Positions 570 to 44,717 of a stretch of 44,717 nt of DNA are shown here, in pieces (position 1 is the first letter of the stretch; every line of letters starts with the position of its first letter). The notes beneath the pieces are model-generated. The model was given only the letters and a program-made list of their open reading frames with translations, was not told the DNA's origin and searched no databases. The stretch is from a virus. Its lineage: Duplodnaviria > Caudoviricetes. A program made the translations under genes and the position numbers. The stretch covers positions 1 through 44,717 of the IMG/VR virus record IMGVR_UViG_3300016466_000173; one strand, written 5' to 3'.

Positions 570-980
570 ATGGTATTCAATATTCAACCATTAAAGGAAA
601 CCGATTATTCTGACATCCTTGTTGGGTGGTGGGAATCTTGGGGGTGGGAGCCACCTCACAAAGATTTTCTACCTGACAATGGGACGGGTGGAATTTGTGT
701 CTTTGAAGACACTACTCCAATCTGTGCAGGTTTCCTTTATACCACCAATAGTGGTGTGGCTTGGGTTGATTGGATAGTATCAAACAAAGAGTACAGAAAG
801 AAACCACAACGCCAACAGGCTATTGGTTTGCTTATAGAGACCCTGACCAATATTGCAAAAAATACAGGGCACAAATATTCTTACGCTTTGATAAAGCACC
901 GTGGTCTTATTGAGACATATAAGACCATTGGTTATATTGAGGCAGACAAGTACACAACTGAAATGATAAAAGTATTTTAA
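570..980 (+). CDS. GNAT-fold acetyltransferase-like protein (T7 gp13-like position)
   Basis: 136 aa; ICAGFLY..AWVDWIVSN..YRK..AIGLLI..Y..IGY pattern is GNAT-like; sits between tail and internal virion genes. Confidence 0.6.
   Translation: MVFNIQPLKETDYSDILVGWWESWGWEPPHKDFLPDNGTGGICVFEDTTPICAGFLYTTNSGVAWVDWIVSNKEYRKKPQRQQAIGLLIETLTNIAKNTGHKYSYALIKHRGLIETYKTIGYIEADKYTTEMIKVF
697..712. repeat. 16-bp palindromic motif copy 1 (GTGTCTTTGAAGACAC), intragenic
   Basis: Exact copy; read as C-V-F-E-D-T in the ORF. Confidence 0.95.
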
Positions 981-12600: not shown

Positions 12601-14805
12601 AACAGGATGGATGAGAAATCAAAGGTTGGTTACTTCTTTGAGATGGCTAACTTAGATGCTATGGCGAATAGCATACCCGGAATTACTAAAGGGTACAAAC
12701 AGATTCGCAATATGCTTCAGACAGGAATCCATACGTTTACTATCAAAGGTCAGGAGCAGATATATAATGCAGACAAACTGCTTCGCATCTACGCCTTGTC
12801 ATTGAATGATGTGCAGCGTGAGAAGTTAAAGCAGATGGGTTGGGATGATGCTCAGATACAGAAGATTAAAGATATCGTTGGTCCTGAGCCTATTGAGTTC
12901 GCAAACAAGTTGGTTGAATACTTCAGCAATGATTACTACGAGTCAATCAATAACGTATACTCTCACGTCAATGATGTGAATCTTGGGTACATACCAAACT
13001 ACTTCCCGACAATCACACAGTCTCAGAAGGTAAGTGCTAAGTTATTGGAAGATGGTGACTTCAATGGAATCTTCAATGCTGAGACTGCTCCTGCACTGAA
13101 AGAACGTAGTGACACTTCAGGGCTTATTGAATTGAACTATGACTTCTCTGATGTGGTAGAGAGTCACTTCGTAACAATGGAGAAGTATAAGGCATACGCT
13201 GAGGGTGTAAAAGAATTGAATGCAATCTTCCAAAACCCTGCGTTCAATGTACTTCTTGAGGAGTCAGGATTGAAGACCGTTGTTAAGCGTTCAGTAAACT
13301 TTGCTATTACTCCGAATGCCGGACAGAAAGAAGAGCAGACTGCACTTGGTAAACTGATGACTAAGTTCACCGGGTTTGCACTTGCATTCAAAGCGGTTCA
13401 AGTTGTTAAACAGGCTACTTCATTCGTCAATGCATACGAGGACTATAGTTATTTCCCTGCTGATTCAAGAGTACCATCAGTTATAAAAGGTCCAATCGAC
13501 CTTATGATGTTTATGGTTGACAGTGCAAAGGTTATTGCAACTATGCCAAAGCAGGTGCGTAAAGCATACGGTATGTCAGCAAATATCCGTGACCGTTTAT
13601 TGAAAGGTATTCAGGGAGATGTATATGGTCTTGAGTCAGGCTCAAATGTATTCTCTCCTATAGACAAGCGTACTGATATATGGGCACGTGCAGTACGTGC
13701 ATTCAGAACGGGTGCTGCCGGACCTACAGTTCTCGGTGACATACTTGGTGTAATGGGATATATGGTTAACTATAACCGCAACATTGCAAACGGTATGAGC
13801 GAGGCTGATGCATTAGAAGCATTCAACGATTATAACGCAACTGCTCAAAGCCGAAGGGGTACTGAGAAAATATCTCTGCAACAAAACAGTACAGAGTTGG
13901 CTCGTGCATTCACAATGTTTGGTAGCACTACATTCCTTCAGATAAACAAGGTTCTTGCTGCACAGACAAATATGTTCCGTGCACTGAAACAAGGTCAGAT
14001 GCCAAGTGCTAAAGACATTCGTGCATTTGCTATCAACCTTGGTATTGCTAACGCATTATTCGTAGGTGTATCAAATCTTGCCAAGTTTATTAAGGGTGAT
14101 GACGATGACCGTGAAGAAGTGCTGAAGCAAATGGGCAAGGCTTTGGTTGGTCTTAACCTTATCGAGTCAATACCTTTAATTGGTGCAGCAGTTGAAACTG
14201 CATTGGCTGATATTGAGGGAGAGAAAACAAGAGGCGGTGACAATGTGGTTAATCCGTATATGCAGGTGTACAAAAAAATGAAACGTGCATCTGAGGAAGA
14301 AGTGGGATTCAAGTCAGTGCAGCCTTTGATAGAGATTGTTATCGGTGCACAGGTTGACCCATTCATTGGTCTATACAATGGTGTGGCAGATGGGTTTGAT
14401 GAAGAGGCTATCTATGATTTGCTTGGTATCAGCAAGTCGTACCGTCCAACACAGGAGAAAGAGAAAGCACCACCTAAAGAAAAACCTATGGGCAAGGAAG
14501 ATATGAAACGATACTTCCCTGAAATGTACGAGCAATTGTATGGTCCCGGTGGTGCACTTGAAGAGACAGAAGAGTTCAGACTCGAACAAGAAAGAATCGA
14601 GAGAGAGCAACTCAAGCGAGAAAAGGACCTGATGTATGGATATGAAGAGTCTAATGGTGGTACTGTATGGAGTAAAGAGAAAAAGAAAAGAGGCAAAAAG
14701 GAAGAGTCGGGTACTATATGGGGTGAGAAAGATAGTAAAGGCGGTACAGTTTGGGATGAGAAAAATACTAAAGGTGGAACAGTATGGGGAGAAAAAGAAA
14801 AGTGA
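3670..14805 (+). CDS. Giant (3711 aa) polyvalent-type virion/ejection protein
   Basis: Two copies of an FRxVHDxFGH..FGPIGEENA..TRGQNS domain, a GNAT-like CFDTILPDYY..GRPDVVFM segment, a HEFGH zincin motif, a G/A-rich hydrophobic stretch and C-terminal GGTVW repeats. Confidence 0.8.
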   Translation: MDELRKLYDALIRDGYYTKSFEEFQKQFQDTSYQDKVYGVVSRDGLFTKPKDDFLKQYAVGPAKPIIEPLKKKEEPTLSDIQSGYTDMASSSEGGSSVSSGTKGDPNDPNWGWEDDEPKPYQRTFIPQFEKRPIVTQDNTYVAKPIDMVGMKRYQEYQQQTKALLEQAKKEERAKAQEEEQIFKSQNLAAIKDEQFQKYLADVNANLIDKSEEEVVPELNRRFSAYGFHFEEAAPGADAMYVRTSDGKHELYIDLDPFTTATEVVESKKLRDFINLYARGKEEEKSEDYIGKAVRAQKMRNVGMRNDDGTYSTVKFASFEQDGKYFVVPTLFPKDPNATYTTNKKDWMELPLEEAIAEARKRGELFQFDNDKEAKEFAEGDWKDVNAFDIEGQKFYKEKGLDYYAEKKKYKNYIQLQDELDLIDKILEGESITPEEKMNNPRYFAKDMRRLYTNEMLEQKREEVLKKKDNLLEQVYDLEFMGIDEGNVQKTREDFDLVLGKRQNEIAGEAIKVNAAAKQEYEALNQTALSVYNVPIDKISTIVPKTPQDAENIKNLTSQLVKVKAAQNTAATKFEIAKTYYDAKWNKGINSEYEENWSGFVTSVSDAWNNGQAAEQILLLTLGVKDAANVKDRQEAARLIVENLSDVSGKQSRVLTRTNLARDGEFLKAVLSDPLEAISTLTATSLTQMLPYGSYIVSSAAAAGTAAGAAAGLAGGPFAEVTVPGGAVTGLGYGLRTGMAATMFAMEYTNSILDVMREKGYDLMDPAQVEAALSDETVWAEGGERGTLRGVPIAVVDFLSAGLAGKVFKTSKLASVPVRVGAQVAERALFDPAAEAAGEYLAQTVAGQDIDFKEIAYEALGGLGSNTSHMAVNLYKEARNNSNTALAYELTDINRVARESVSDERISQWANNMHQLGKIDADVNQRIQANVGLRREARELVSVGRASRLLGDGKKVEARVMELLAARNELSATQNRREINRNKISQINQEIATISESKKLLPENKEVAGDGVSTAVNLDAILGTTREGVSRFVISGKTLTREQFLKELDNMSNRRLLRAPVFVDNDEEAQKLYEQKVKDAIQKQSPSQVSVQSEAGVSETVEERKPETKPEVATQKDFQKEIDAIEERRKKELSDYSEDQLDEIYSIGDTKRTIRDFVNAKYDKEIADLKPSAAVTTEEVTQAEEDLVSSKTRLDELAEAIPQRIDYTEEDITNFDTLEEDKAKGIITALAEKINDGTKLTPVERSLYDANKAQVDEVSGLVAERTAIQEEVADLEALISESQPTRAELTDEQIVEYAPDEDVRDKNNDVLLKALQSKNVSPQAEPIVTDLGDVVVFEYNNFDENETRTRLTFKKKADGTIISRGVKVERSTGDIRGTDLFKNYVESQRRKRRAEFRAEEVLAETTLPPNETSDFNRGVAEVKKNAEEYRKLKNIKRIPNPAQKSLFTIVSEMMAKAYEKVLNKPNDAIVKKAYDAMIEETLQQYDFIVSKGLKVVRHTGKGEPYANSNEMLKDLRDNNTLKFLPNDVAFGQDVTAATDNIGLQPSGRKLPDGYEMTNSEVFRVVHDYFGHGILGNQFGPIGEENATLQHLDLYSDIAAPAVIYQTRGQNSWVNFSGENSRANELRKQARELKKQGKEKEANLLLEEADKIFKFAEPKIGLFPNIFNFKRYESARRIRDKQILDNRPNKRNSDLPDLLAAYSNRSRSTRGVNKRDIRETKTIRGFSLNVIAEYKLDNRIERGIKKAFPLFKGVQKIYEITDGDKYRQMMIDALKDNPYGSSATIYSAEDFSKMRLFITEDGSTGFTLREDGFLGGGFSDPKFNRPQNIAQLLILGIKEGGTTVECFDTILPDYYSYFGLKAVSRNTFNDEYRPKESSGTAVKDWDYQTYRNFNNGRPDVVFMIYDGGDRNTIEDRLGIFDEYKNYEKDNTKSFDSYDDAEEFMKQEAVKRLELDFEQSTDTTKLKEDGKKITKPGNRLFNQSIPEVSEIADRYFQGAFGRQRPQFYGTRSIDKERAKRISDAFKRLVDNPTAPNVKRAYEAMARETIEQYKFMLDAGYFVEINNEEPYGNSNEMIEDLRTNKRMKIFSTESGFGDEKITPEQRDRNVLLRESGFYDVNGQPLLVNDLFRAVHDFFGHAELGNSFGPIGEENAWNVHARMYSPLARQAMTTETRGQNSFVNFSGVNERVEAMRQEAANLRNQGKLAEAEALVGKIYEEISFAEQKQGILPEEFWTVDTDDIGDAEFIPNTNLSIDTKESNVQNGLTQQEFISAASNGNMSNATKLANFLNTAFPSVTISTDKVSFDNVMAQVGTEIYMRGNLIVYGVTVDGDIYINPDVHNSESALFNTTIHEFGHVWTDYLQGSKKGKAIYARGVEVIQEAIANDENVKKIFYAQMNKYSGDRARAINETMAILIGNKGEEIVNESVKNKFKEWLLDVWKFIKDNFKMSKDLSEEEIQNLTLDGFIQTALADIFSGSEISLTDVQKKTLKNPDAMFSSTQSMQSIIQQARANGFSDAAIKQVLLNRGFKASDINNALVVQIDVTTDLPREFANVQGGVQKGYQLFTEVRAELQRFAHMGPRGGIRRERTKTWSEIREKAIELLKANPIYQAQSDTVQMELISAFDRTLNTSANTNVTRQISAIRNNLRQRKIGAKELQQAKIAVKNLIRSVLPKSDMYSQAQINKLISIISNATEASILSDTEKVMKIVEQQRGKMKKSVLKKMIELVNKKAKPAMTTTGKRRSRGLDPEGQAFFAQVKPIIRAVINDDVQFLSDMAAELAQADADGSINEAILKQNRGEKLTTQEQALLNKAYAYDTFGDLMTMELEEVEQLLAELQDARAESLRRLKTRREVRAMRYDALSQQATAQVSELNPELFVEETVEVTLPNGDVETITVVRPKSRNELVQDRAAIRRAFQSGKIWSGFKQLVARWDYTTITGVKDFIRKRILHLGSMMNLFDNDAQGMTFFRDNVYRPLNRMDEKSKVGYFFEMANLDAMANSIPGITKGYKQIRNMLQTGIHTFTIKGQEQIYNADKLLRIYALSLNDVQREKLKQMGWDDAQIQKIKDIVGPEPIEFANKLVEYFSNDYYESINNVYSHVNDVNLGYIPNYFPTITQSQKVSAKLLEDGDFNGIFNAETAPALKERSDTSGLIELNYDFSDVVESHFVTMEKYKAYAEGVKELNAIFQNPAFNVLLEESGLKTVVKRSVNFAITPNAGQKEEQTALGKLMTKFTGFALAFKAVQVVKQATSFVNAYEDYSYFPADSRVPSVIKGPIDLMMFMVDSAKVIATMPKQVRKAYGMSANIRDRLLKGIQGDVYGLESGSNVFSPIDKRTDIWARAVRAFRTGAAGPTVLGDILGVMGYMVNYNRNIANGMSEADALEAFNDYNATAQSRRGTEKISLQQNSTELARAFTMFGSTTFLQINKVLAAQTNMFRALKQGQMPSAKDIRAFAINLGIANALFVGVSNLAKFIKGDDDDREEVLKQMGKALVGLNLIESIPLIGAAVETALADIEGEKTRGGDNVVNPYMQVYKKMKRASEEEVGFKSVQPLIEIVIGAQVDPFIGLYNGVADGFDEEAIYDLLGISKSYRPTQEKEKAPPKEKPMGKEDMKRYFPEMYEQLYGPGGALEETEEFRLEQERIEREQLKREKDLMYGYEESNGGTVWSKEKKKRGKKEESGTIWGEKDSKGGTVWDEKNTKGGTVWGEKEK
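6905..7036 (+). CDS. Nested +1-frame small basic protein MPFKSKAQVKFLYSQKPELAKRWRKENPKQNLKSLPKKISKKK (43 aa)
   Basis: ATG after A-rich leader CAAAAAGTAAAAG; resembles small MPFKSxAQ..PE.AKRW phage proteins (from recall, not searched); the main frame is a low-complexity linker here. Confidence 0.65.
   Translation: MPFKSKAQVKFLYSQKPELAKRWRKENPKQNLKSLPKKISKKK
7231..7246. repeat. 16-bp palindromic motif copy 2 (GTGTCTTCAAAGACAC), intragenic
   Basis: Exact copy; read as V-S-S-K-T. Confidence 0.95.
8602..8632 (+). promoter_or_regulatory. Putative internal Bacteroidetes promoter (TTG-N20-TAAATTTG) inside the giant gene
   Basis: Consensus -33/-7 boxes with 20-nt spacing, 48 nt upstream of the nested ORF at 8681. 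Confidence 0.45.
8681..8851 (+). CDS. Nested +1-frame small protein MNQREELETNKSLTIDQINEILTYPTYWQPILTEAVQRGESIKETYERLKPLEDLV (56 aa)
   Basis: Globular-looking composition while the main frame becomes abnormally R/S/N-rich; AT-rich leader and upstream promoter-like motif. Confidence 0.55.
   Translation: MNQREELETNKSLTIDQINEILTYPTYWQPILTEAVQRGESIKETYERLKPLEDLV
9569..9748 (+). CDS. Nested +1-frame small ORF MAKKLLSPATDSSISLSRKFRKLRIDISKEPLG... (59 aa)
   Basis: ATGGCAAAAAAA start after an A-rich leader (ACAACAAAACTAAAAGAAG), in an interdomain linker. Confidence 0.4.
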   Translation: MAKKLLSPATDSSISLSRKFRKLRIDISKEPLGDNVLSSMAQGQSTKKEPKESQMPLKD

Positions 14806-14825
14806 GTGTCTTCAAAGACACTCAC
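14802..14825. repeat. 16-bp palindromic motif copy 3, extended to GTGAGTGTCTT-CA-AAGACACTCAC at the convergent gene junction
   Basis: Core at 14806-14821 fills the gap exactly between two convergent TGA stop codons. Confidence 0.95.
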
Positions 14826-20961: not shown

Positions 20962-20977
20962 GTGTCTTCAAAGACAC
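20962..20977. repeat. 16-bp palindromic motif copy 5, intergenic
   Basis: Exact copy 7 nt past the exonuclease stop codon. Confidence 0.95.
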
Positions 20978-22375: not shown

Positions 22376-22678
22376 TTAAATGGTTACTGATTCTTTTAGT
22401 TTGCTTACGATAGTACGATAGTCAGGGTCTTCACGAAGACGTTTAGTCACGACATTTATACCGTGAATAAGTGGTGGGTGCATTGTGTCATAGCCCTCTT
22501 CCTGAAGGAACTTCTGAATGTATATGAGTTGCATTGGTCTTGTGCTACACATATAGTAAAGCAAGTGACGTGCGTCCACGATGGTACGGTTACGAGTCTT
22601 GCTGAACAATTGCTCCTTCGTGATGCCGAACATATCGGCAATGCGTTCTGCGTACTGATTAAATACTTCTTTCTTCAT
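22376..22678 (-). CDS. Second DnaA-C-like HTH protein
   Basis: IADMFGIT..QLFSKTR.R.IVDARHLLYY..H..LIHG. Confidence 0.7.
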   Translation of the reverse strand: MKKEVFNQYAERIADMFGITKEQLFSKTRNRTIVDARHLLYYMCSTRPMQLIYIQKFLQEEGYDTMHPPLIHGINVVTKRLREDPDYRTIVSKLKESVTI

Positions 22679-22892
22679 TAGTGATTTGAGTAGTTAAGCC
22701 CGAAGCCTCAGGAGAAAAGATTCTCCCGAAGTCCTCGAACATATTGTGAATTAGATTAGTTGCGTTCTGCCGACCCTCGAAGTGGTGATGGAGAGCATAA
22801 AGGTCTTCGGCATTGGTGTCTTCAAAGACACCGTTCTCTCCGTCAGCGTGAACTTCCTGCTCACGTACTGACATAAATAGTTGTTTTGACAT
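22659..22892 (-). CDS. Hypothetical protein
   Basis: 77 aa, directly downstream of the promoter at 22923-22953. Confidence 0.6.
   Translation of the reverse strand: MSKQLFMSVREQEVHADGENGVFEDTNAEDLYALHHHFEGRQNATNLIHNMFEDFGRIFSPEASGLTTQITNEERSI
22816..22831. repeat. 16-bp palindromic motif copy 6, intragenic
   Basis: Exact copy (G-V-F-E-D-T). Confidence 0.95.
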
Positions 22893-24870: not shown

Positions 24871-24912
24871 CGGATGAGGGGGGAGTCGAACCCCCCTTGC
24901 AACCATTCATCC
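24871..24912 (-). ncRNA. tRNA-like minihelix (acceptor stem plus T-arm, no D or anticodon arm)
   Basis: GGATGA-ATGGTTGCAA-GGGGGG-TTCGACT-CCCCCC-TCATCC-G on the - strand. Confidence 0.65.
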
Positions 24913-24913
24913 T

Positions 24914-24929
24914 GTGTCTTTGAAGACAC
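24914..24929. repeat. 16-bp palindromic motif copy 7
   Basis: Exact copy abutting the GATase stop codon, 1 nt upstream of the minihelix. Confidence 0.95.
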
Positions 24930-26050
24930 TATAACAGATTGTCTACGTCCTGCTGAGTGTACCATTCGTTGCATCCTGTGCAACAATAGTTGCCATAGCC
25001 ATCGTGCTCAAGGTCACGATAGCAGGACGTGCAGTATGGCGTGTCAACAAACTTGTCCTCAGTCTCGATATCAATACCGCTTAACTGAGCGTAGTAGTCA
25101 TCGAATGAACTGAACTCTAACTGCCTGTAGGAAGGCTCCCACGTAGGCTTAGTGTAATCAACAGGCTCCCACGTGCGGACGGGCTTTGGTCTGTTATAGT
25201 TCACCTCGTATGACTCGTGCATCTTGTCTGAAGAAGTGCGTGGTGTCTGAAGGTTGAAGTAAATCCAACAGGTCACCACCTTATTCTTTTTGAGTCTGAT
25301 AGGTATCTGCTTACGGCAGTACCATCGTGGGTGTCCCTCAAGTTGGTCTAACTTGCTGAGCACCGTGTCGCTTACCTTGAACACGTCCACCTTCACGTTG
25401 TGCCCTACACCCTTCTCGTCAATCAGATACGGCAGTCCTTGAATCAGCAGTGGATACTTGTCCTCAGTCTTGCCTGACGCTACGAACTTTGAGTCAGTGA
25501 GGTATCGGTAGTAGTTGCCGTGCCCCTTCTTGAGTGTGCCGTAGACGGCAACAAGATTGTCTTGCAGTACGTTGTCCTTCGAGTACCACACCCCGTCCTT
25601 GAATGTCCATAGGTCACGGTTGTAAATCTGAAAGGTGCGGGTGCGGGTGTTGATGGTGACGAACCGAACAAGTTTGTTTTTCTCTAACTCAGACTTCCAC
25701 TTGTGGCGTGGCACTGAACCGAGTGACTCAGCCAATACTTTGGAGTCGCACTTCTCAGCATTGCCAAGCCCATAGATAGTCCCGTTCATCATCAGGTACT
25801 CATTCTTTTGAGCACCGCACCTGAACGGGTGCGTGTTGTCGAGACCGACCTTGCCGACAGTGGCGTATCGGAAGTGGGCAATGTAAGGGCGTGGTGTGTC
25901 GAGCACTGCCCAATCCTTTGACTTGTGATAGGTTACCTCGAAGGTGTCGAGCCACACAACCCCCAATCCGTGGGGGTTAATACGTGATGAGTTTTTCAGA
26001 GTCTCTGAGGGAATCTCAATGTTCCGTTGTTTGATGATGATGATGCACAT
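24929..26050 (-). CDS. Class II glutamine amidotransferase fused to gamma-glutamylcyclotransferase (AIG2-like), with C-terminal Zn ribbon
   Basis: MC start (Ntn Cys2), NPHGLG, HFRYAT, NTHPF, NG; then VAVYGTLKKG and LDQLEGHP.WY.R; then CxxC..CxxC. Confidence 0.85.
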   Translation of the reverse strand: MCIIIIKQRNIEIPSETLKNSSRINPHGLGVVWLDTFEVTYHKSKDWAVLDTPRPYIAHFRYATVGKVGLDNTHPFRCGAQKNEYLMMNGTIYGLGNAEKCDSKVLAESLGSVPRHKWKSELEKNKLVRFVTINTRTRTFQIYNRDLWTFKDGVWYSKDNVLQDNLVAVYGTLKKGHGNYYRYLTDSKFVASGKTEDKYPLLIQGLPYLIDEKGVGHNVKVDVFKVSDTVLSKLDQLEGHPRWYCRKQIPIRLKKNKVVTCWIYFNLQTPRTSSDKMHESYEVNYNRPKPVRTWEPVDYTKPTWEPSYRQLEFSSFDDYYAQLSGIDIETEDKFVDTPYCTSCYRDLEHDGYGNYCCTGCNEWYTQQDVDNLL

Positions 26051-26073
26051 AGATTTGATTTGATTTGTGGGCG

Positions 26074-26089
26074 GTGTCTTTGAAGACAC
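26074..26089. repeat. 16-bp palindromic motif copy 8, in the 5' UTR of GATase
   Basis: Exact copy between the promoter (26117-26148) and the ATG (26050). Confidence 0.95.
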
Positions 26090-26116
26090 AGAACCCTTGG
26101 TTAGACTTAGAATGTA

Positions 26117-26148
26117 CAAAGGTAATACTTTTCTTGAACATTACCAAA
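26117..26148 (-). promoter_or_regulatory. Bacteroidetes promoter TTTG-N20-TACCTTTG
   Basis: Full consensus. Confidence 0.8.
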
Positions 26149-26293
26149 TAATTGCACGAATATTTTTTCGGTTAAACTTCCACCCTGTTTGGAACATAGC
26201 CTTCTCCACTGCCTCCCACTTAGTGTGGGCGACAATGGGGAAGAGATATTGTTTCAGGTGATAAACTTTGAAGGTATATTGACGCTCCTGCAT
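26141..26293 (-). CDS. Small hypothetical protein (50 aa, MQERQYTF...)
   Basis: ATG 4 nt after the upstream stop codon. Confidence 0.5.
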   Translation of the reverse strand: MQERQYTFKVYHLKQYLFPIVAHTKWEAVEKAMFQTGWKFNRKNIRAIIW

Positions 26294-26297
26294 AGCC

Positions 26298-26942
26298 TTA
26301 AGATTTACAGGTGTACAATAGGTTAGTGTCGGTCTCCTGCAGGTGCTTGTCAATGAGTTGCTCAGCCTTCTGTTTGTCCTTTGGACGCACGATAAGGTAA
26401 TGGTGAACACAGAACACGTTGCTCGACTCACAGGTCATCAGTTTGGTTGGAATCCCCGCAGCCTTGAGCACCTTCTTGGCATCGTTCAGTTCAGCCTCAG
26501 CCACGTCTGACTTGCAGGGTGAGTCATCCCACATACCCGTGTCATTTGCACCGCACACTGCATACTCAGGCTCTGAGTATCCACGCCACCCGTCAGTTGA
26601 CTTCCACTGCTTGGCATAATTCCACGCCTCTCCGAATGACTTCTCGTCCACTGCAGGTGGGGTAATGCAGTTTGCTTTAATCCAATCACCATCCCACTCC
26701 TTGCCGTTCAGATACCACTTGCCACGGGACTGAGAGATACTGACTCCTGTCAGCCCGTTGAGTCTCTCCTTCGTGGTCTTGGAGAACCATCCTGCGTTGC
26801 TGATATGGAGACCATCCGCTCTGTGCTCAGCAATTAAGTTGTCAAAAAGATACAGGCGTTTGCCGTCCGTGAAGGTGTTGCCTACACGCTTTACTTCGCC
26901 ACGCTCGAATGCGAGGCAAGTCTGTTCAGTTGTTTTATTCAT
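26298..26942 (-). CDS. Hypothetical early protein
   Basis: 214 aa; GW.SKTTKERLNGL motif typical of phage early proteins (from recall). Confidence 0.7.
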   Translation of the reverse strand: MNKTTEQTCLAFERGEVKRVGNTFTDGKRLYLFDNLIAEHRADGLHISNAGWFSKTTKERLNGLTGVSISQSRGKWYLNGKEWDGDWIKANCITPPAVDEKSFGEAWNYAKQWKSTDGWRGYSEPEYAVCGANDTGMWDDSPCKSDVAEAELNDAKKVLKAAGIPTKLMTCESSNVFCVHHYLIVRPKDKQKAEQLIDKHLQETDTNLLYTCKS

Positions 26943-27025
26943 TTTGTTGGTTTATTAAGTTGATATACTGATATGAGTCCGATAATTACAGGGACTACTA
27001 CAAGGGTTACTATGAATGCCATCAT
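26939..27025 (-). CDS. 28-aa single-pass membrane peptide MMAFIVTLVVVPVIIGLISVYQLNKPTK
   Basis: Fills the gap exactly, with ATGA overlaps at both ends; hydrophobic core and basic tail. Confidence 0.7.
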   Translation of the reverse strand: MMAFIVTLVVVPVIIGLISVYQLNKPTK

Positions 27026-27252
27026 TGGTTGTCCTCCTTTTTAGTTAGCCCCATAGCCTCAGCAGTTAGCCCGATAGCGAAGTGTATTTGCTCCATAACC
27101 CACTCGTTTGTGAGAGCCTTAGCCAATACCTCGTGAGCCTGTTGCTCAGTGCAGTTGAATCTTGCGGTCACGTCATCCACGTGCCAAAGGTTGTCGGTTT
27201 GGTAGCCCTGCTCGTGCAGGTGCAACCTTGCTTCTTGTGTTTTGTTAGTCAT
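27022..27252 (-). CDS. Hypothetical early protein
   Basis: 76 aa in a tight operon. Confidence 0.65.
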   Translation of the reverse strand: MTNKTQEARLHLHEQGYQTDNLWHVDDVTARFNCTEQQAHEVLAKALTNEWVMEQIHFAIGLTAEAMGLTKKEDNQ

Positions 27253-27256
27253 CTTA

Positions 27257-27514
27257 TTAGTTGGTTTTAGGTTTGTTAAGTAAGTAGTCCTTCAGTTCTT
27301 GCACGTAGGTTGTCTCAAGCCCCTCGTTATGTGCCTCGTAGTGGTACACCACCTCATAGTAGTTGAAGAAGTGTCCCTTCTGTTCGTTGCCCAACAGGTT
27401 GAATAACTCACGTGCCTGTTTGTGTTGTCCGTTTGCACGGCTCTCAATAATGTAGTCAAAGTACTCGTCAATTGTGTCGAACCCGTACTCGTGAATGATT
27501 GTTTGCGTTACCAT
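27257..27514 (-). CDS. Hypothetical early protein
   Basis: 85 aa, first gene after the promoter at 27542-27573. Confidence 0.65.
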   Translation of the reverse strand: MVTQTIIHEYGFDTIDEYFDYIIESRANGQHKQARELFNLLGNEQKGHFFNYYEVVYHYEAHNEGLETTYVQELKDYLLNKPKTN

Positions 27515-27541
27515 ATGATTTGATTTAGTTTAATTTCGGTA

Positions 27542-27573
27542 CAAAGATAGTACATAAAAAGTACATATGCAAA
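27542..27573 (-). promoter_or_regulatory. Bacteroidetes promoter TTTG-N20-TATCTTTG
   Basis: Full consensus. Confidence 0.8.
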
Positions 27574-27574
27574 T

Positions 27575-27781
27575 TTATTTTTTCCACAGGTTTATGCCAC
27601 AGGCTAAGACCGTGACGTTTTCCACTGATACCTGTGCAACCCCTCGTCCACCTCGACTGAAGTAGAATAGCCTTTTGTCTGTGCTCAGCGTAGCCCACTG
27701 CTCATACAGGTGCAATGGAAGATAGGAGACAGGCTTCTCAATTCGGATAAGGTAGACATTGCTTTGTGTTGCTTGTGTCAT
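27575..27781 (-). CDS. Hypothetical early protein
   Basis: 68 aa, ATGA-coupled to the upstream gene. Confidence 0.55.
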   Translation of the reverse strand: MTQATQSNVYLIRIEKPVSYLPLHLYEQWATLSTDKRLFYFSRGGRGVAQVSVENVTVLACGINLWKK

Positions 27782-28062
27782 CTTGCACCCCCTTCCTGTA
27801 GCAGGGTCTTGAACCCCTTGTAAACTCCGCTCCTGTAGGCGTTGCTCTTGTAGTCAAACGTCCCCGACAGGATGATGCTTGTGATACTACAGAACCTCAC
27901 CTCAATTTGGTGGAGCACCTGCTCGAATGTCTTGCCCTCAAGAAGGGCTTTGATTACCTGCTCCCGTGTGCTCACAGAAGGGTTGTCAAACGTGCCGTTT
28001 GCCTTCGCCTCAATGTGTGCGTCCGCAATGGCTTTCACTTGTTTTGAAATTCGCTTTGTCAT
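27778..28062 (-). CDS. Hypothetical early protein downstream of hammerhead 1
   Basis: 94 aa with A-rich leader. Confidence 0.65.
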   Translation of the reverse strand: MTKRISKQVKAIADAHIEAKANGTFDNPSVSTREQVIKALLEGKTFEQVLHQIEVRFCSITSIILSGTFDYKSNAYRSGVYKGFKTLLQEGGAR

Positions 28063-28086
28063 ATCTGTTTTGTTTTAGTTGGTTTT

Positions 28087-28135
28087 ACGTTTCGTCCTTT
28101 CGGACTCATCAGCACAGGCACTCACCTGTGGACGT
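28087..28135 (-). ncRNA. Type III hammerhead ribozyme 1
   Basis: ACGUC^CACAGG-UGAGUG-CCUGUG-CUGAUGA-GUCC-GAAA-GGAC-GAA-ACGU; complete core and three stems. Confidence 0.93.
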
Positions 28136-28141
28136 GGGGCA

Positions 28142-28157
28142 GTGTCTTTGAAGACAC
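28142..28157. repeat. 16-bp palindromic motif copy 9 in an extended hairpin (28136-28163)
   Basis: Exact copy; flanks GGGGUG/UGCCCC pair on the - strand with G-U wobbles. Confidence 0.95.
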
Positions 28158-28184
28158 CACCCCGTTCAACACCACATTGAACTG

Positions 28185-28445
28185 TCAATTGCAACCGACC
28201 TGTATGCACAGGGTCAGCCCTGTCTGTTGCTCGTACCACTCATACGCCCGTTCATTGCGTATGTCGTACATTGTCTCAGTGTACTTGTCATATGCACCCA
28301 CTTCCCACGGGTGGTTCTTTATGTACCTCAGCCGTCCCTCACGCCCGTAGTTGTAGAAGTGTGGCAAAGTGTCGGCAGGGACGAAGTTCTCAAGGTACTG
28401 CTCAGCAGTGAACGTGTATGACGTTGGCTTATACTCAGTGTTCAT
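28185..28445 (-). CDS. Hypothetical early protein
   Basis: 86 aa, ATGA-coupled. Confidence 0.6.
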   Translation of the reverse strand: MNTEYKPTSYTFTAEQYLENFVPADTLPHFYNYGREGRLRYIKNHPWEVGAYDKYTETMYDIRNERAYEWYEQQTGLTLCIQVGCN

Positions 28446-28822
28446 ATCTCACCCCTTTCATATCTTACAAGACTCCCACTATCAGAACCTGTGCCCCACT
28501 CAATGTGGGCAAACAGGGTCTCGTCATACGCCCACCCCTCAGCAGGGGCAGGTAGCATAAGCCACTGCAGTGCGTCCGCAATGACCTCAGTTACTGCAGG
28601 GTCTCCGTCCCACTCCTTGTAGGACACCTCGAAGGCTGAAAGTTCGTCCCATACATAGCCACCCCGTGATAGCCCGTGTTGCACTTGGTTGTGCGTCAGA
28701 CGTGCGTGGTAGTAGTCAGTCACATAACCCTGTGACCCGTGGTAGAAGGCAGCCACGCCCCCGTCCTCTGTGACAATGGTGATATTGTCAATGGCTCCGT
28801 GTTGAATTACATTGTACTTCAT
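28442..28822 (-). CDS. Hypothetical early protein
   Basis: Start at MKYNV, 5 nt after the upstream stop codon. Confidence 0.6.
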   Translation of the reverse strand: MKYNVIQHGAIDNITIVTEDGGVAAFYHGSQGYVTDYYHARLTHNQVQHGLSRGGYVWDELSAFEVSYKEWDGDPAVTEVIADALQWLMLPAPAEGWAYDETLFAHIEWGTGSDSGSLVRYERGEI

Positions 28823-28827
28823 ATTTC

Positions 28828-29097
28828 TTAGAAAGTTAGGTATGTTCTGTAGTTGTGGTTGTACTGACGGCAAAAGAACTTCATAACGGAAACGTCATCT
28901 GTAAGCAGTACTACCTCATACAAGTGACCCTTTGTGCGTTTGAAGGACTCCTGTACCTCAAGTGCGTTCTCCTCGTCCGCAAGTGGTACAATAGTAAGAT
29001 TGGCTTTGTTCACCGCAATCACCCAATGGGTTGCAGTTACTTTGTCGGTCTCGTTTTCTTCCTGTGACAGGAAGAAGGTGTTTTGTTGGTTTGTCAT
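28828..29097 (-). CDS. Hypothetical early protein downstream of hammerhead 2
   Basis: 89 aa with AT-rich leader. Confidence 0.65.
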   Translation of the reverse strand: MTNQQNTFFLSQEENETDKVTATHWVIAVNKANLTIVPLADEENALEVQESFKRTKGHLYEVVLLTDDVSVMKFFCRQYNHNYRTYLTF

Positions 29098-29124
29098 ATA
29101 GTTTAAAATTAGGTTTGCTTGGTT

Positions 29125-29176
29125 GCCTGTTTCGTCCTGTTGGACTCGTCAGCACGGGCTTCACCCGTGGACAGGC
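29125..29176 (-). ncRNA. Type III hammerhead ribozyme 2
   Basis: GCCUGUC^CACGGG-UGAAG-CCCGUG-CUGACGA-GUCC-AACA-GGAC-GAA-ACAGGC; complete core, 6-bp stem III. Confidence 0.93.
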
Positions 29177-29181
29177 GGGGA

Positions 29182-29197
29182 GTGTCTTTGAAGACAC
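29182..29197. repeat. 16-bp palindromic motif copy 10 in an extended hairpin
   Basis: Exact copy flanked by CGGGGA/TGCCCCG. Confidence 0.95.
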
Positions 29198-29213
29198 TGC
29201 CCCGTTCTGTAGG

Positions 29214-30215
29214 TCACCTCACGTTTGGTGACCAAACCCCGTTGTGGGGGTCACGTGCGTCAGCGTCCCACGCAGAAAGGTGTATCTGCCTTGGGTCAAC
29301 CGCCACGGCTATCTCACGGCTCAGTTTGCCCTGCAAGATGAACCTGCGGTAGTGACGTGCCTTCTCAATCCGCTTCTCAGCCTCAGCCTCGTTGCCCCCG
29401 TACATTGACAGTATGATAGGACGGATACGCTTGAGGAAGGACTCGTGGGACGTGTTGGGTGCGTTCACCGCAGTGTCCACAAGGGCATAGAACAACTCGT
29501 ACCTGCGGATGCACTGCTTCACGCTCTCGAACCTGCTCACAACCCTAAACTCAAGCCCCTCAGAGCCGTCACTGAAAGACTTCTCAAGGGCATACTGATA
29601 GCGACCCCCGTGTCCCCCCTCACCCTGCCAATGACCTGCCTCATTGCGTCCAAAGAGCCTCAGATTGCCGTTGCAGTAGCCGTTCAGAAGACGCTTCTCA
29701 AACAGAGCGTGGATAATGCCACAAAACGGACGGATAGCCTTGCGTAGGTCATCTGAAGACATACCTTTCACGGTGATGGTCACGTGCCCACCGCACCTGC
29801 GGTCAGCAGGGCTATAGCGGGAGTCAATAATCTTCTCAGCCTGTACGAACAGGTCAAAGACCTTCGTCCGCCACTTGCCTTCGGGGAGCAGGGGCAAAAT
29901 GTGGGTGATAGCCTCATAACCGCAAGAGCCGTCACGCTCGAACCCCGCGAACAACGGGTACTCCTTCACGCTCGACCTGTGCAAGGTGTTCTTCTCAATC
30001 TCGAACCCGATAGTGAAACGGCTGATAAACTCACCCTGCTCCTGTAGGATAGCCCTACTGCGGTCTACAGGCTTCAACCCTACCACGTCCACAGGGAAGG
30101 CGGTTTTGTTGCGTTTTAGGGGCTTTGGTGCTCCGTGATAAGAGCGAATTTCGTCACGTCCGTAGTCACCTGTGTTGGTGTACGTGATACCTTGTAAAAT
30201 TTGATTGGTGTTCAT
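29214..30215 (-). CDS. Putative amidoligase (COOH-NH2 ligase, Amidoligase_2-like)
   Basis: IGFEIE, DGS..YE, CGGHVT and LEFR motifs; GATase-GGCT gene nearby. Confidence 0.75.
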   Translation of the reverse strand: MNTNQILQGITYTNTGDYGRDEIRSYHGAPKPLKRNKTAFPVDVVGLKPVDRSRAILQEQGEFISRFTIGFEIEKNTLHRSSVKEYPLFAGFERDGSCGYEAITHILPLLPEGKWRTKVFDLFVQAEKIIDSRYSPADRRCGGHVTITVKGMSSDDLRKAIRPFCGIIHALFEKRLLNGYCNGNLRLFGRNEAGHWQGEGGHGGRYQYALEKSFSDGSEGLEFRVVSRFESVKQCIRRYELFYALVDTAVNAPNTSHESFLKRIRPIILSMYGGNEAEAEKRIEKARHYRRFILQGKLSREIAVAVDPRQIHLSAWDADARDPHNGVWSPNVR

Positions 30216-30250
30216 ATCTGTGGTGTTTTTGGTTTAGTTAGTGAAGGGCA

Positions 30251-30266
30251 GTGTCTTTGAAGACAC
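30251..30266. repeat. 16-bp palindromic motif copy 11 in an extended hairpin
   Basis: Exact copy; GGGCG/UGCCC flanks on the - strand; intergenic. Confidence 0.95.
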
Positions 30267-30281
30267 CGCCCGTTGATTGGT

Positions 30282-30959
30282 TTAGTTAGATGACCCCCTT
30301 TGTGAAAGTGCACCCTGTAAGAACTGAATAGCAAGGGCTATCTCTTCCTCAGTGTTACCTGTGGTCACCTGCCCGTTCACGTCCACACGGATTGAGACGT
30401 TGCGACCTAACTGCAGGTCAGCAGCCTTGAAAGACAGGGTCAATATGGTGGGCACACGTACTTCCACTTCAGCAGCACTGCCTTCGCCTTCGCCTTCTCC
30501 GTCTCCTTCGCCTTCACTTCCACCACCTTTGGTGCTCTGTTCCGTCTCAGCCTGTGCCCTTGCGAACTTCAGCAACCCCTCAAGGGTTCTGTTCGGTTCA
30601 TTGCCTTCAGCCTCAGCCTCATCACACTTTGTGGTGAACAGGGCAATAACGTCCTGTGATAACTTCCCTGCCTTCAGCACCTTGTAAAAGTAGGACTTTT
30701 GCCACCCGAAAACTTTCTTCCCGAACTCTTCGTTTGACCACGTCACGCCTTCCTCACGGAAGACTGCCTTGCCTTCCTCAGACGTGAACCACTCGTGGGC
30801 TTTGACCACAAGGACTGACAGGGTCAGTGTGTTGTTGAACTTGCTCTTTTGAGCGTTTGTTAGTGTCCGTTGCACTCTACGGATTTCTGTGATTTGGAGT
30901 CCTGCCTTCACTGAAGGAAGGTTAAGGAGTGCCGACTCGATTTGCAATAAATTGCTCAT
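30282..30959 (-). CDS. First early gene; hypothetical with possible HTH and a G/E linker
   Basis: 225 aa; EEFGKKVFGWQKSYFYKVLK resembles an HTH; GEGDGEGEGEGS linker. Confidence 0.7.
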   Translation of the reverse strand: MSNLLQIESALLNLPSVKAGLQITEIRRVQRTLTNAQKSKFNNTLTLSVLVVKAHEWFTSEEGKAVFREEGVTWSNEEFGKKVFGWQKSYFYKVLKAGKLSQDVIALFTTKCDEAEAEGNEPNRTLEGLLKFARAQAETEQSTKGGGSEGEGDGEGEGEGSAAEVEVRVPTILTLSFKAADLQLGRNVSIRVDVNGQVTTGNTEEEIALAIQFLQGALSQRGSSN

Positions 30960-31021: not shown

Positions 31022-31051
31022 CAAAGATAGTATAAAGAATGTACATTGCAA
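31022..31051 (-). promoter_or_regulatory. Major leftward early promoter TTG-N19-TATCTTTG
   Basis: Consensus with an upstream A-tract. Confidence 0.75.
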
Positions 31052-31089
31052 TACCTTTGGCAATTTTTTTTTAATTTTTTTTTCGTGCC

Positions 31090-31460
31090 CTGCAGTCACG
31101 GGCTTTGCCGTCCCTGTTTGTACGCCCTGTGGACGTGCTCTGTCCCTGCTGATTATTAAGGAAGGACAGGAGACGGGCGGTGGGCTAAAGAAGGTCTCTC
31201 TGTTTGCGTCCCTGTTTTCAGTGTCTTTGAAGACACGGGACGGGCGGAGACGGGGAAACCTGCAGGGGCGGACGGGCGGACGGCAGGGCGGAGACAGGCA
31301 GGGCAGGGCGGTGCTCCCACCACAGGCAGGGCAGGGCTGCAGGGGGCTGCGTAAAAACGTCAAAAAGTTCGGACGGGGAAACCGAAAGGTGACCCCCACC
31401 CCCTTGAGGCGGGGGGCGGTTCCGTGGGGGGTCGGCTCACGCAGGATGGCGGGGGAACCC
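31090..31460. other. GC-rich non-coding divergence region with GGGC(A/G)G repeats; possible genome terminus
   Basis: Lies between divergent promoters; repeated GGCAGGGC/GACGGGCGG units and G/C tracts. Confidence 0.55.
31221..31236. repeat. 16-bp palindromic motif copy 12
   Basis: Exact copy in the divergent non-coding region. Confidence 0.95.
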
Positions 31461-31468
31461 AAAACCTC

Positions 31469-31497
31469 TTGACATCTCACATTTTTTTGTAACTTTG
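31469..31497 (+). promoter_or_regulatory. Rightward promoter TTG...TAACTTTG
   Basis: -7 box ends 4 nt before the ATG at 31502. Confidence 0.65.
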
Positions 31498-31501
31498 TTG
31501 T

Positions 31502-33719: not shown

Positions 33720-33812
33720 AGTCAGGTGGCGGAATGGTAAACGCTCGCTTCAAGGTGCGGTTAGTCAACGAAATGTAAAGCTAACGTACAGGTTCGAATC
33801 CTGTCCTGACTG
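33720..33812 (+). tRNA. Atypical tRNA (Leu-like, probably CAA) with a shortened anticodon stem and long variable arm
   Basis: Acceptor AGTCAGG/CCTGACT, D-arm GCGGAATGGTAAACGC, T-arm ACAGG-TTCGAAT-CCTGT; anticodon arm CGC-TTCAAGGT-GCG is irregular. Confidence 0.65.
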
Positions 33813-33831
33813 CAAACAAATAAATAAAAAT

Positions 33832-35987: not shown

Positions 35988-36337
35988 TGAAAGATGCCTG
36001 TTATAAAAAAGTAAAAGCACAGTACGATGTATTCCCATCGGCACGTGCATCACAGGCAATTGCCAAGTGTCGTAAAGAATCGGGTAGTGTACGCAAGGGT
36101 GAGGCAGGTACTTCACTAAAAAGATGGGAGAAGGAGAAGTGGGTTGACACCCGGACGGGTAAAGCGTGTGGTGCAGGTGGCAGCAATGAGTACTGTCGTC
36201 CATCCAAGAGAGTGTCTTCAAAGACACCCGTAACCAAATCAGAGTTGAGTCCATCCAAACTTGCAGCGAAGAAGGCTGAGAAGTCGATAGTTGGTATGGG
36301 CAATCGTGTTTCAAGCATTATAAAAAAAAATAGGTAA
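35987..36337 (+). CDS. Small basic phage protein (L.RW..EKWVD..CG..YCRP family)
   Basis: K/R/C-rich; coupled to the upstream gene. Confidence 0.75.
   Translation: MKDACYKKVKAQYDVFPSARASQAIAKCRKESGSVRKGEAGTSLKRWEKEKWVDTRTGKACGAGGSNEYCRPSKRVSSKTPVTKSELSPSKLAAKKAEKSIVGMGNRVSSIIKKNR
36212..36227. repeat. 16-bp palindromic motif copy 13, intragenic
   Basis: Exact copy (R-V-S-S-K-T-P). Confidence 0.95.
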
Positions 36338-43891: not shown

Positions 43892-44717
43892 TATATACTA
43901 CGTAGTCCCGGACTATATCCCTAAGCAGGTTCTTTCAAATAAGAACCGCAATCGTAGTTGGGCGTATGGCTACAATGACCAATACGATGTTGTCGTAATA
44001 TCTAAGACAGGTCAGATAGGTGAGGTAGTAAACATATCAGGACTTCACATAGCATTACCTGCAGCACCTGATAAGTGTCTTCAAAGACACTCAAGTCCAT
44101 CTGAGCAATATTGGGAGAGAGAGGAATTACCTGCTCCGTTGTCAAAGATAAGTTCCATCTTTCAGTGGAATGAAATGCCCAATGATTTCAAGAACAAGTG
44201 GGTTGACTATATAGAGCAGGAGTTCGATAGGAGAGAGCAGGGGATGTGGTTTATGAACAATGGTAAACCAACATACATCACAGGGGCACACTATATGTAT
44301 CTGCAATGGTCCAAGATTGACATAGGATACCCTGACTATCGTGAAGCCAATAGGATATTCTATTTGTTTTGGGAGGCTTGTCGTGCTGACTTTAGGTCAT
44401 TTGGAATGATATACCTCAAGATAAGGCGTTCAGGCTTTTCATTTATGTCATCATCAGAGTGCGTCAATATTGCTACACTTGCAAGAGACTCACGCATAGG
44501 AATCCTTTCTAAGACAGGTGCTGATGCTAAGAAGATGTTTACTGATAAGGTAGTACCAATTAGTTCAAATCTTCCGTTCTTCTTTAAACCTGTGCAGGAC
44601 GGTATGGACAAGCCTAAGACTGAATTGGCTTACCGTGTTCCTGCATCAAAGATTACTAAGAAGAATATGTCAGAGTCCTCAAGTGAGGAGATTGATGGAT
44701 TGGATACCACCATAGAT
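43830..44717 (+). CDS. terL: Terminase large subunit, N-terminal part (runs off the window; absent from the ORF track)
   Basis: Open frame from the ATG at 43830; YITG.HY.YL and YLKIRRSGFS Walker A-type motifs. Confidence 0.85.
   Translation, partial: MTKVSKESRQNKDGQNEGQSSIYYVVPDYIPKQVLSNKNRNRSWAYGYNDQYDVVVISKTGQIGEVVNISGLHIALPAAPDKCLQRHSSPSEQYWEREELPAPLSKISSIFQWNEMPNDFKNKWVDYIEQEFDRREQGMWFMNNGKPTYITGAHYMYLQWSKIDIGYPDYREANRIFYLFWEACRADFRSFGMIYLKIRRSGFSFMSSSECVNIATLARDSRIGILSKTGADAKKMFTDKVVPISSNLPFFFKPVQDGMDKPKTELAYRVPASKITKKNMSESSSEEIDGLDTTID
44075..44090. repeat. 16-bp palindromic motif copy 14, intragenic
   Basis: Exact copy (K-C-L-Q-R-H), a third reading register. Confidence 0.95.

Follow-up and report, generated by a model that had tools for sequence, protein, structure and literature searches.

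The stretch of DNA examined here, referred to below as the window, is a 44.7-kb fragment of a phage genome (IMG/VR record IMGVR_UViG_3300016466_000173, 44,717 nucleotides) and is estimated to be 74% complete. Its genes include those for a helicase, a primase, the annealing protein Sak, GroEL and GroES, lysis functions and a protein of 3711 residues. Among annotated records MW202828 (60.9 kb) comes closest, with a primase that is 79% identical; size and gene order are held in common with the Elemovirus phages of Flavobacterium, and we infer a host among the Bacteroidota. Our subject is the early region on the minus strand, where three gene junctions carry a short palindrome followed by an RNA element that is predicted to be cleaved, a hammerhead ribozyme at two of them and a tRNA-like minihelix at the third. 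The original prediction for this DNA held that the phage dices its early polycistronic mRNA with such elements. The features of the region are as follows.

30282..30959, minus strand: e1, the first early gene, 225 residues, with a predicted helical DNA-binding domain (residues 33-140) and a predicted C-terminal dimer domain of three strands and a helix
30246..30271, minus strand: palindrome 30251-30266 as an 11-bp hairpin between e1 and e2, here with no cleavage element
29214..30215, minus strand: e2, the second early gene, 333 residues, with no PHROG or Pfam family
29176..29204, minus strand: extended hairpin on palindrome 29182-29197
29124..29177, minus strand: type III hammerhead 1, GUC triplet, predicted cut 29170/29169 (RF00008, 44.5 bits, E 1.2e-6)
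28136..28163, minus strand: extended hairpin on palindrome 28142-28157, with two G-U pairs
28084..28138, minus strand: type III hammerhead 2, GUC triplet, predicted cut 28131/28130 (RF00008, 41.1 bits, E 1.1e-5)
24929..26050, minus strand: amidotransferase-like and GGACT (gamma-glutamylcyclotransferase) gene, the stop codon of which overlaps a palindrome
24914..24929, minus strand: palindrome, unextended, 1 nt 5' of the minihelix
24868..24912, minus strand: tRNA-like minihelix with a 6-bp acceptor, a 10-11-nt linker containing GGU, a 6-bp T stem, a UUCGACU loop and a GCUA tail

All three junctions read as the original prediction had described them, with palindrome, cleavage element, A-rich leader and ATG in that order on the minus strand. 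At the first, the stop codon (29214-29216) is followed by the palindrome (29197-29182), the hammerhead (29177-29124), the leader and an ATG at 29097. At the second, the corresponding positions are 28185-28187, 28157-28142 and 28138-28084, with the ATG at 28062, and at the third the stop codon (24929-24931) overlaps the palindrome (24929-24914), the helix occupies 24912-24872 and the ATG lies at 24848. The breaks that had been proposed, 29170/29169, 28131/28130 and 24913/24912, were obtained again from the sequence. The claim that G-U pairs extend the hairpins at 28142 and 30251 only on the transcribed strand also holds, since the flanks there form 12 and 11 uninterrupted pairs on the minus strand and are interrupted on the plus strand.

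The cores of both window hammerheads are complete (CUGACGA or CUGAUGA, GAAA and GUC, following the listing in PMC3088659), the positions flanking the core are paired, and stems I, II and III comprise 6, 4 and 4-6 bp, stem III being open. No other ribozyme class was found in the window with Rfam. To place these elements in a family, we assembled 38 sequences, including the window and 49.9 kb of MW202828, some of them limited to 60,000 bases. The exact palindrome 16-mer matches at least 163 viral loci, from which 24 long contigs were chosen and 23 used (G020 was left out). A control sample was picked by primase rather than by palindrome and consists of 32 long contigs from the best 80 of 517 primase relatives; 13 of these were scanned at the sequence level, two of them in part (G056, the first 20 kb, and G026, from 30 kb onward).

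Type III hammerheads number 53, in 26 of the 38 sequences. Their stems I-III differ from copy to copy while the pairing stays, the pairing of stems I and III having been a filter criterion. The core is CUGA(U/C/A)GA in 51, with one CUGAGGA and one CUGAUGU, and in all 53 loop I begins with U and loop II ends with A. Loops I and II contact one another in hammerheads. The next ATG lies 13-55 nt past the motif, behind a leader that is 51% A and 5% G. Hammerhead cores also match primase-picked genomes that have no palindrome, and the pattern yields chance matches too. The original prediction had asked whether related phages keep the palindrome next to the hammerhead, and they do: 42 of the 53 cuts fall 5-15 nt after a palindrome, two fall 33 nt after one, and nine have none. 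Nine of the 11 unlinked hammerheads are preceded by some other strong hairpin, with a minimum free energy (MFE) of -15 to -22. The 45 nt 5' of the cut have a mean MFE of -18.6 kcal/mol, compared with -5.2 for random 45-mers. In the 42 linked hairpins the transcribed strand forms 129 Watson-Crick, 53 G-U and 11 C-A pairs among 210 flank pairs, and the sense strand folds better than the antisense strand in 36. Judged from these sequence patterns, the hammerhead-linked hairpins are selected as RNA, on the transcribed strand.

Several observations weigh against this picture and must be set beside it. Both window hammerheads fall below the RF00008 gathering score of 48.5, stem III having a short flanking part that lowers the score, and the predicted MFE structure lacks stem III for hammerhead 2 and, in a longer context, for hammerhead 1. 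Two of the 53 type III copies, in G021 and G024, have only a weak upstream hairpin. Many of the copies share two homologous junctions and cannot be counted as independent. With these points in the balance, we regard cleavage by the hammerheads in vivo as highly probable from their sequence.

Among the type III copies, 17 have a mismatch at 10.1-11.1. In 15 of these it is U-U, always with A at H17 (14 GUA and 1 UUA), and in two it is A-A, both with GUU; all 28 GUC hammerheads carry G-C at this position. The correlation may represent a compensating variant of the core, or shared descent.

Type I hammerheads are also present, 18 of them in 11 of the 38 sequences, including all six that do not have e1. 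Here stem III remains on the upstream piece, and in G001 stem III is the palindrome itself. The cuts are mostly placed 18-32 nt before a start codon.

The elements exchange places at homologous junctions. Of the 30 sequences compared after e2, 22 carry a type III hammerhead there, a T-arm element is present in 3, and 5 show the palindrome alone. The junction after the GGACT gene (30 sequences) has a type III hammerhead in 11, a T-arm element in 6, the palindrome only in 7 and nothing in 6, and after e1 (30 sequences) the palindrome stands alone in 17 and nothing is present in 8, the others having a type III hammerhead (2), a T-arm element (2) or a type I hammerhead (1). A given junction may thus hold a hammerhead in one genome and a minihelix in another. 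Three devices occupy these junctions at comparable distances, which points to the cut, and to the ends that it would leave, as the trait under selection. The layout of the cassette is, by sequence comparison, conserved across a family of Bacteroidota phages of about 60 kb. The genes between the early junctions are patchy among the relatives. This patchiness would also be expected if the palindromes were recombination points that shuffle small early genes, in the manner of PeSL, with the ribozymes and tRNA mimics as mobile passengers. The phage encodes both Sak and an exonuclease, and in MW202828 palindromes precede most early genes, and the 49.9 kb that were scanned contain no hammerhead. PeSL provides a precedent for recombination of this kind. 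However, the hammerhead cores are intact (51 of 53), their distances to stop and start codons are fixed, and the palindromes in the terminase and helicase genes, described below, are kept in spite of amino-acid changes, so that we consider recombination very improbable as the main function.

The tRNA mimics form a graded series. Minihelices were found 12 times in 9 genomes, with a linker of 9-13 nt that contains an invariant GGT, and 8 of the 12 begin 1-5 nt after a palindrome; G004 has four of them and no type III hammerhead. They grade into pseudo-tRNAs of the same structural series, in which a D arm is present and the middle is variable, the linkers measuring 18-78 nt. One of these lies in the window.

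33720..33813, plus strand: pseudo-tRNA with D arm, T arm and acceptor, no canonical anticodon arm and no palindrome, between groEL and the next gene

ARAGORN calls this element tRNA-???, and its middle part ranges from 18 to 78 nt in relatives. The gene that follows it in the window encodes an RyR-domain protein. Other members are at G014 57372, G003 1443, G005 2105, G006 5048, G046 57501, G049 54507 and G017 27837; their acceptor, D and T arms are conserved, the middle is hypervariable and the gene junctions differ. On the minus strand of G049, near 59028, 58135 and 56606, three tRNA-like elements have a variant of the palindrome in place of the anticodon arm. Our filters missed elements after the GGACT gene in G001 and G015 and after e1 in G003: a T-arm element with a longer linker, a degenerate minihelix and an unclassified hairpin.

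Would such an element be cut? Model substrates of RNase P need only the acceptor stem, T stem and T loop, with a 12-bp ruler and an RCCA anchor, according to the available text of PMC11143913. The minihelix of the window has the 12-bp helix of acceptor and T stem (6 + 6 bp) and the T loop (UUCGACU); it differs from those substrates in lying inside an mRNA, in having no RCCA and in having a 1-nt leader. Its tail is GCUA and only 1 nt separates the hairpin from +1, both of which count against cutting, as do the observations that alone it folds no better than shuffled sequences (z -1.46) and that conservation of pairing among the minihelices is circular, T-stem and acceptor pairing having been the filter criteria. 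A GCCA tail is found in 2 of the 12 (G007 and G014). RNase P substrates require a single-stranded 5' leader. Because the RCCA is missing and the leader is so short, we place less trust in the cut at 24913/24912 than in those of the hammerheads. In these phages the canonical-length tRNA genes end without CCA (ACAA, ACTA or ACGA), which makes it as plausible that RNase Z cuts on the 3' side, about 20 nt ahead of the ATG, as that the 5' side is cut. RNase Z has substrate rules of its own. Such a 3' cut would match the 18-32-nt spacing of most type I cuts. The RNase Z model TIGR02651 matches all 14 control genomes, including Bacteroides thetaiotaomicron, with a score above the cut-off in only 9, so that the presence of RNase Z in the host is not established. 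From its structure, we lean towards cleavage of the minihelices in vivo, with clearly less assurance than for the hammerheads. The original prediction had spoken of self-encoded cleavage elements; the minihelix does not cleave itself and would depend on RNase P and/or RNase Z of the host.

We turn now to the palindrome, GTGTCTT-CA-AAGACAC, of which the window has 14 exact copies against a mean of 0.00 in 100 shuffles. It had been described as a 16-bp palindrome; it is indeed repeated far above chance, but it is imperfect, with 7-bp arms around a CA centre. The association with a cleavage element is real at the three junctions, but 11 of the 14 copies are followed by none. Besides the four already listed, the copies are these.

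697..712, minus strand: in gene 570-980
7231..7246, plus strand: in the gene of the 3711-residue protein
14802..14825, minus strand: palindrome 14806-14821 extended to a terminator-like stem with a U tract, between convergent stop codons
16682..16697, plus strand: in the helicase gene, at the same spot in 30 of 38 sequences
20962..20977, plus strand: directly after the exonuclease gene, within an open reading frame (ORF) of 47 residues
22816..22831, plus strand: in the small ORF 22659-22892
26074..26089, minus strand: in the leader of the gamma-glutamylcyclotransferase/amidotransferase-like gene
31221..31236, minus strand: about 190 nt 5' of the first early promoter
36212..36227, plus strand: in the DUF5872 gene 35987-36337
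44075..44090, plus strand: in a terminase-like gene (named from MW202828), at the same spot in 22 of 34 sequences

The 38 sequences contain 376 copies, of which 137 are coding, 209 intergenic and 30 ambiguous by a crude ORF caller, which assigned the copy at 36212 to the wrong strand and took those at 20962 and 22816 for intergenic. By neighbour, 44 precede a type III hammerhead, 14 precede a T-arm element, 25 are terminator-like stems and 293 stand alone. The family consensus is GT(G/C/A)TC(T/C/G)T-YR-A(A/G/C)GA(C/G/T)AC, and the centre is a symmetric YR step (CA/TG, TA or CG) in 747 of 752 half-sites. Variants particular to a lineage are also symmetric: GTCTCTT-YR-AAGAGAC in G025 and G049, GTGTCGTTAACGACAC in MW202828 and a GTCTCG form in G039. 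At the terminase site five codons are identical in 19 of 34 sequences while the neighbouring codons vary. In G025 the residues follow that genome's own site variant, CLQRH becoming SLQRD in the terminase and SVFEDT becoming SLFEET in the helicase, and the helicase copy of G049 likewise changes amino acids to fit the variant of its genome. Since amino-acid changes follow the site variant, selection acts on the nucleotides, in either orientation.

The original prediction saw the palindrome as a protective 3' hairpin that might also bind a protein. That it is chiefly a protective hairpin is not supported, given that 293 of the 376 copies stand alone, that the 137 coding copies have no strand bias and that hammerheads occur in relatives with no palindrome. 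The guess of a protein-binding site is probably right, but the level is DNA rather than RNA. It is instructive to weigh here the alternative that the palindrome is mainly an RNA hairpin for a phage protein, serving in antitermination like boxB/nut or in capping of 3' ends. The intergenic copies are biased in the strand of the centre (126 CA, 37 TG), which is unexpected for a pure DNA site and counts against our reading, and those linked to hammerheads are biased as well (36 CA, 5 TA, 1 TG). Eleven copies lie 20-29 nt past a promoter box where 1.5 are expected, although most of these are probably one homologous site. In G001 the palindrome serves as stem III, and in G049 it forms the middle arm of tRNA-like elements. 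Against this, the coding copies are unbiased in the strand of the centre (CA 56, TG 51) and in folding (71 of 137 prefer the sense and 59 the antisense strand) and are unextended, with a mean of 1.98 of 6 flanking pairs compared with 4.98 for hammerhead-linked copies. The symmetric YR centre, the 25 terminator-like stems among the 376 copies and a candidate protein that, from its predicted model, resembles a binder of duplex DNA also speak against it, and we consider this alternative unlikely. That the palindrome acts as a site at the level of DNA is, in our estimate, likely. Most likely it is a genome-wide double-stranded operator, dense in the early region and reused as an RNA hairpin, as far as sequence can tell.

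No high-copy host site was evident among the bacterial-genome matches listed (at least 128 loci, 80 of them inspected), which are mostly single scattered copies; the exceptions, with 5 and 2 copies, are two contigs from bins of Bacteroidota. Multi-copy contigs occur in Cytophagales/Flavobacteriaceae genome bins (L258-L261, L290 and L313-L314) and may be related phages.

The best candidate for the binder is the product of e1. Among the 32 primase-picked genomes, all 12 with e1 carry 5-16 palindrome copies, and 17 of the 20 without it carry none. The others are G047 with 1 copy, G046 with 4 (two of them deviant) and G050 with 9. Fifteen of these 20 were covered by the fixed pattern and the e1 search only, and five are less than 90% complete or fragmentary. 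G039 and G049 have e1 and arrays and do not have e2 or GGACT, and the products of the latter two genes were on this ground rejected as the binder. The DnaA_C-type helix-turn-helix (HTH) genes were rejected because they are also present in palindrome-free genomes; the window has two such small proteins (PF08299), at 15460-15876 and 22376-22678. On the primase tree (FastTree, 57 sequences, midpoint root, several weak nodes) the e1-negative genomes occupy one large clade and several places among the e1-positive ones, and G039 is an e1-positive genome inside the negative clade. This scattered presence means that the link between e1 and the palindrome does not reflect a single event. Mosaic exchange of an early module carrying the gene and the early sites together could produce it. 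G049 has a second, weaker e1-like match (E 4e-10). G046 and G047 are sister genomes with few palindromes, partly decayed, and in G046 the sole exact palindrome is the hairpin preceding its hammerhead.

The domain model of e1 has a pLDDT of 94.8, and the full model contains a low-confidence linker at 144-161. Five DNA-binding chains of the ParB family align to residues 7-108 with an rmsd of 3.0-3.3 Å over 73-75 residues: KorB 8qa8 (Z 5.4, rmsd 3.0, 74 aligned), 1r71 (4.8), VirB (4.3), ParB 1zx4 (4.1) and Spo0J (3.8). Modelled as a homodimer, e1 scores 0.42 (best control 0.00), the runs agreeing in at least 88% of contacts with pLDDT of at least 75, and the tightest contacts in this predicted model are at 171-178 and 211-218. 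Like the sites of ParB and KorB, the palindromes are multiple (14 copies) and some, those of the terminase and helicase genes, are at conserved positions. Other searches contributed little. Foldseek found no match in the PDB for either the full model or the domain, sequence searches of Pfam and the PDB gave blanks or noise, no ParB-family Pfam matched any of 131 e1-family members, the viral structure library returned only unnamed homologues, and a VIA search with full-length e1 gave mostly helix noise. A DUF3102 lead for the e1 cluster (0.91) covers 29% of the cluster. Because only helices lie N-terminal of the DNA-binding-like domain in the model, leaving no CTPase domain, we do not assign e1 to the ParB/KorB family.

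Against e1 as the binder, the fold matches are weak (Z 3.8-5.4) and inside the noise band, and the dimer score sits exactly on a pass mark that 20 of 30 solved homodimers and 1 of 23 monomers reach. In addition, copies are present with no detected e1 in G046 (4), G050 (9) and G012 (one); G050 ends 0.6 kb after its last copy, near the expected position of e1. On balance, the genome comparison inclines us to the view that e1 binds the palindrome.

How the early region is transcribed bears on this proposal. The box TAnnTTTG, which we take to be the Bacteroidota -7 promoter element, occurs before early genes at four places, upstream of e1, at two internal sites and at 22923.

31022..31029, minus strand: TAnnTTTG box upstream of e1
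27542..27549, minus strand: internal TAnnTTTG box
26117..26124, minus strand: internal TAnnTTTG box, 27 nt before palindrome 26074-26089

The count of this box is only mildly above chance (53 versus 39), so that these promoter calls rest on position; a sigma-70 scan of the window was at chance level (34 versus 32.7). No convincing minus-strand terminator was found between 31000 and 14825, where the weak matches lie inside genes only, and a long early-middle transcript is therefore plausible. In phage N4, hairpin promoters are read by a virion RNA polymerase. The palindromes might be imagined to act likewise, the 3711-residue protein being the polymerase and the hammerheads trimming 5' ends; the phage does encode a giant protein of comparable size, and the copies in MW202828 lie shortly before start codons. 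But that protein has no polymerase family match in PHROGs or Pfam, its homologues occur in palindrome-free genomes, host-type promoter boxes lie upstream of the early genes, and palindromes are found in late genes, in both orientations and as terminator-like stems. We regard this possibility as extremely remote.

We lean towards a model with two layers, a DNA operator and an RNA-cutting cassette, that share one sequence. In the DNA layer, a homodimer, most likely of the e1 product, would read the palindrome array and probably damp or organise early transcription. Host RNA polymerase would make a long early transcript, to be cut at chosen junctions; each cut would fall just past a stop codon, with about 20-80 nt left before the following start codon. 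A hammerhead would cut in cis, leaving a 2',3'-cyclic phosphate upstream and a 5'-OH downstream; alternatively, a tRNA mimic would be processed by host RNase P and/or RNase Z. At type III junctions the palindrome with its GC and G-U flanks would become the 3' hairpin of the upstream piece. A separate hairpin is needed there because after type III cleavage that piece keeps no more than about 5 nt of its own stem, whereas type I needs none because stem III stays upstream. 3' hairpins and 5'-OH ends afford protection to RNA. We think it reasonably probable that the hairpin protects the upstream piece, and the resulting pieces would gain separate stabilities and translation levels.

An alternative is that the cuts destroy or silence early mRNA, as in glmS, or uncouple translation, with the hairpin merely insulating the folding of the ribozyme. 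Cleavage is able to trigger decay (glmS, in the consulted portion of PMC6765202), and the hairpin adjoins stem III, where it could stop upstream RNA from mispairing with it. However, every architecture leaves a 3' hairpin upstream and an intact A-rich leader downstream, and elements of the RNase P/Z type take the place of the ribozyme at the same junctions; silencing thus appears rather improbable. The dicing of early mRNA is the best reading of the cassettes. Of the original proposal what stands is a conserved cassette with elements that swap and a hairpin before the cut that is selected on the transcribed strand; its view of the palindrome as above all a protective 3' hairpin is not supported, and its minihelix would need host enzymes. 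We also considered that operator binding, as a roadblock or pause site lying a few bases ahead of the cut, might be coupled to co-transcriptional cleavage, the ribozymes and tRNA mimics being interchangeable punctuation. This extension we hold as doubtful.

Some other features of the window deserve mention. The 3711-residue protein (3670-14805) has no Pfam match and contains an internal duplication about 1.7 kb apart (8170-8428 and 9859-10126). A GC-rich non-coding segment with CCGCCC-type repeats (31060-31500), between the divergent early and late arms, is a possible genome end or origin, and a very AT-rich gap 5' of the primase gene (20313-20460) is a candidate replication origin. GroEL and two GroES-like proteins are encoded at 32094-33713, 34701-34976 and 42578-43141.

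Comparison with known systems places these results in context. The early polycistron of T7 is cut at gene junctions by RNase III, a host nuclease, on long stems; cutting at junctions is also what we propose here. Mycobacteriophage stoperators are many genome-wide repressor sites in temperate phages and in this respect resemble the palindrome, but they are asymmetric and oriented. The Elemovirus elemoE_6-9C (NC_055854) is like the window in gene order, size, GroEL/GroES and a protein of about 3700 residues, yet only the N-terminus of the primase matches (43.5% over 35% of the query), and the patterns used found no e1, palindrome array or minihelix in it. The one type I hammerhead-like motif in its early region has a nearly identical counterpart in G002. 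This motif (16360-16304, minus strand) is not detected by Rfam and lies under an annotated 35-residue ORF on the opposite strand.

The cutting of phage polycistrons is not a new idea. Perreault et al. (PMC3088659) already proposed in 2011 that hammerhead clusters flanking prophage or phage genes, or blocks of genes, process transcripts to gene- or operon-length mRNAs; three tandem sets cleave in vitro, and a halovirus early transcript ends within 3 nt of a hammerhead site. As far as the accessible text of that paper goes, those hammerheads have no fixed upstream hairpin, operator palindrome or exchange with tRNA mimics. The t-elements of plant mitochondria are tRNA-like structures at mRNA ends that likely direct cuts by RNase Z and/or RNase P (available text of PMC1920247). 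They are organellar, whereas the elements described here are phage-borne, run from pseudo-tRNA to minihelix and alternate with ribozymes. The C4 RNA of P1/P7 is a non-tRNA substrate of RNase P, and is the precursor of an antisense RNA (PMC11143913, in the part available). For the operator, the closest parallel is KorB, with 12 OB operators on the plasmid RK2 of about 60 kb (accessible parts of PMC13768133 and PMC11790492). In these sources KorB is a dimer with a central HTH, a long linker and a C-terminal dimer domain that binds palindromes at conserved positions, and the e1 system may be alike, going by the predicted domains of e1. Having no N-terminal CTPase domain, e1 cannot be a CTP clamp, and its sites double as RNA hairpins. 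By analogy, e1 may work as KorB does in operator binding. Our literature search found nothing on the palindrome, on a hairpin-hammerhead cassette or on exchange of hammerheads and tRNA mimics in phages, although the supplements of surveys may list such motifs. In the literature searched, then, the flanking of phage genes by hammerheads is published (PMC3088659, as far as available), and the tRNA-mimic swap and the link to an operator were not found.

These results offer a candidate site, with natural variants, for an unannotated family of early proteins that comprises 339 clusters at 50% identity. Predictions of the cuts at the level of single bases, and a cultured relative with a hammerhead-like motif, are available, and the compact hairpin-ribozyme-leader cassettes could serve as expression parts in Bacteroidota. 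The biological role of ribozymes that flank phage genes has been open since 2011 and, in the sections at hand, is still described as undefined (PMC3088659, PMC6765202). The phage family described here narrows that question, since three devices, a type III hammerhead with its hairpin, a type I hammerhead and a tRNA mimic, serve the same junctions. If operator binding were indeed coupled to cleavage, with ribozymes and tRNA mimics as interchangeable punctuation, these phages would possess a bacterial-virus counterpart of the t-element punctuation of organelles.

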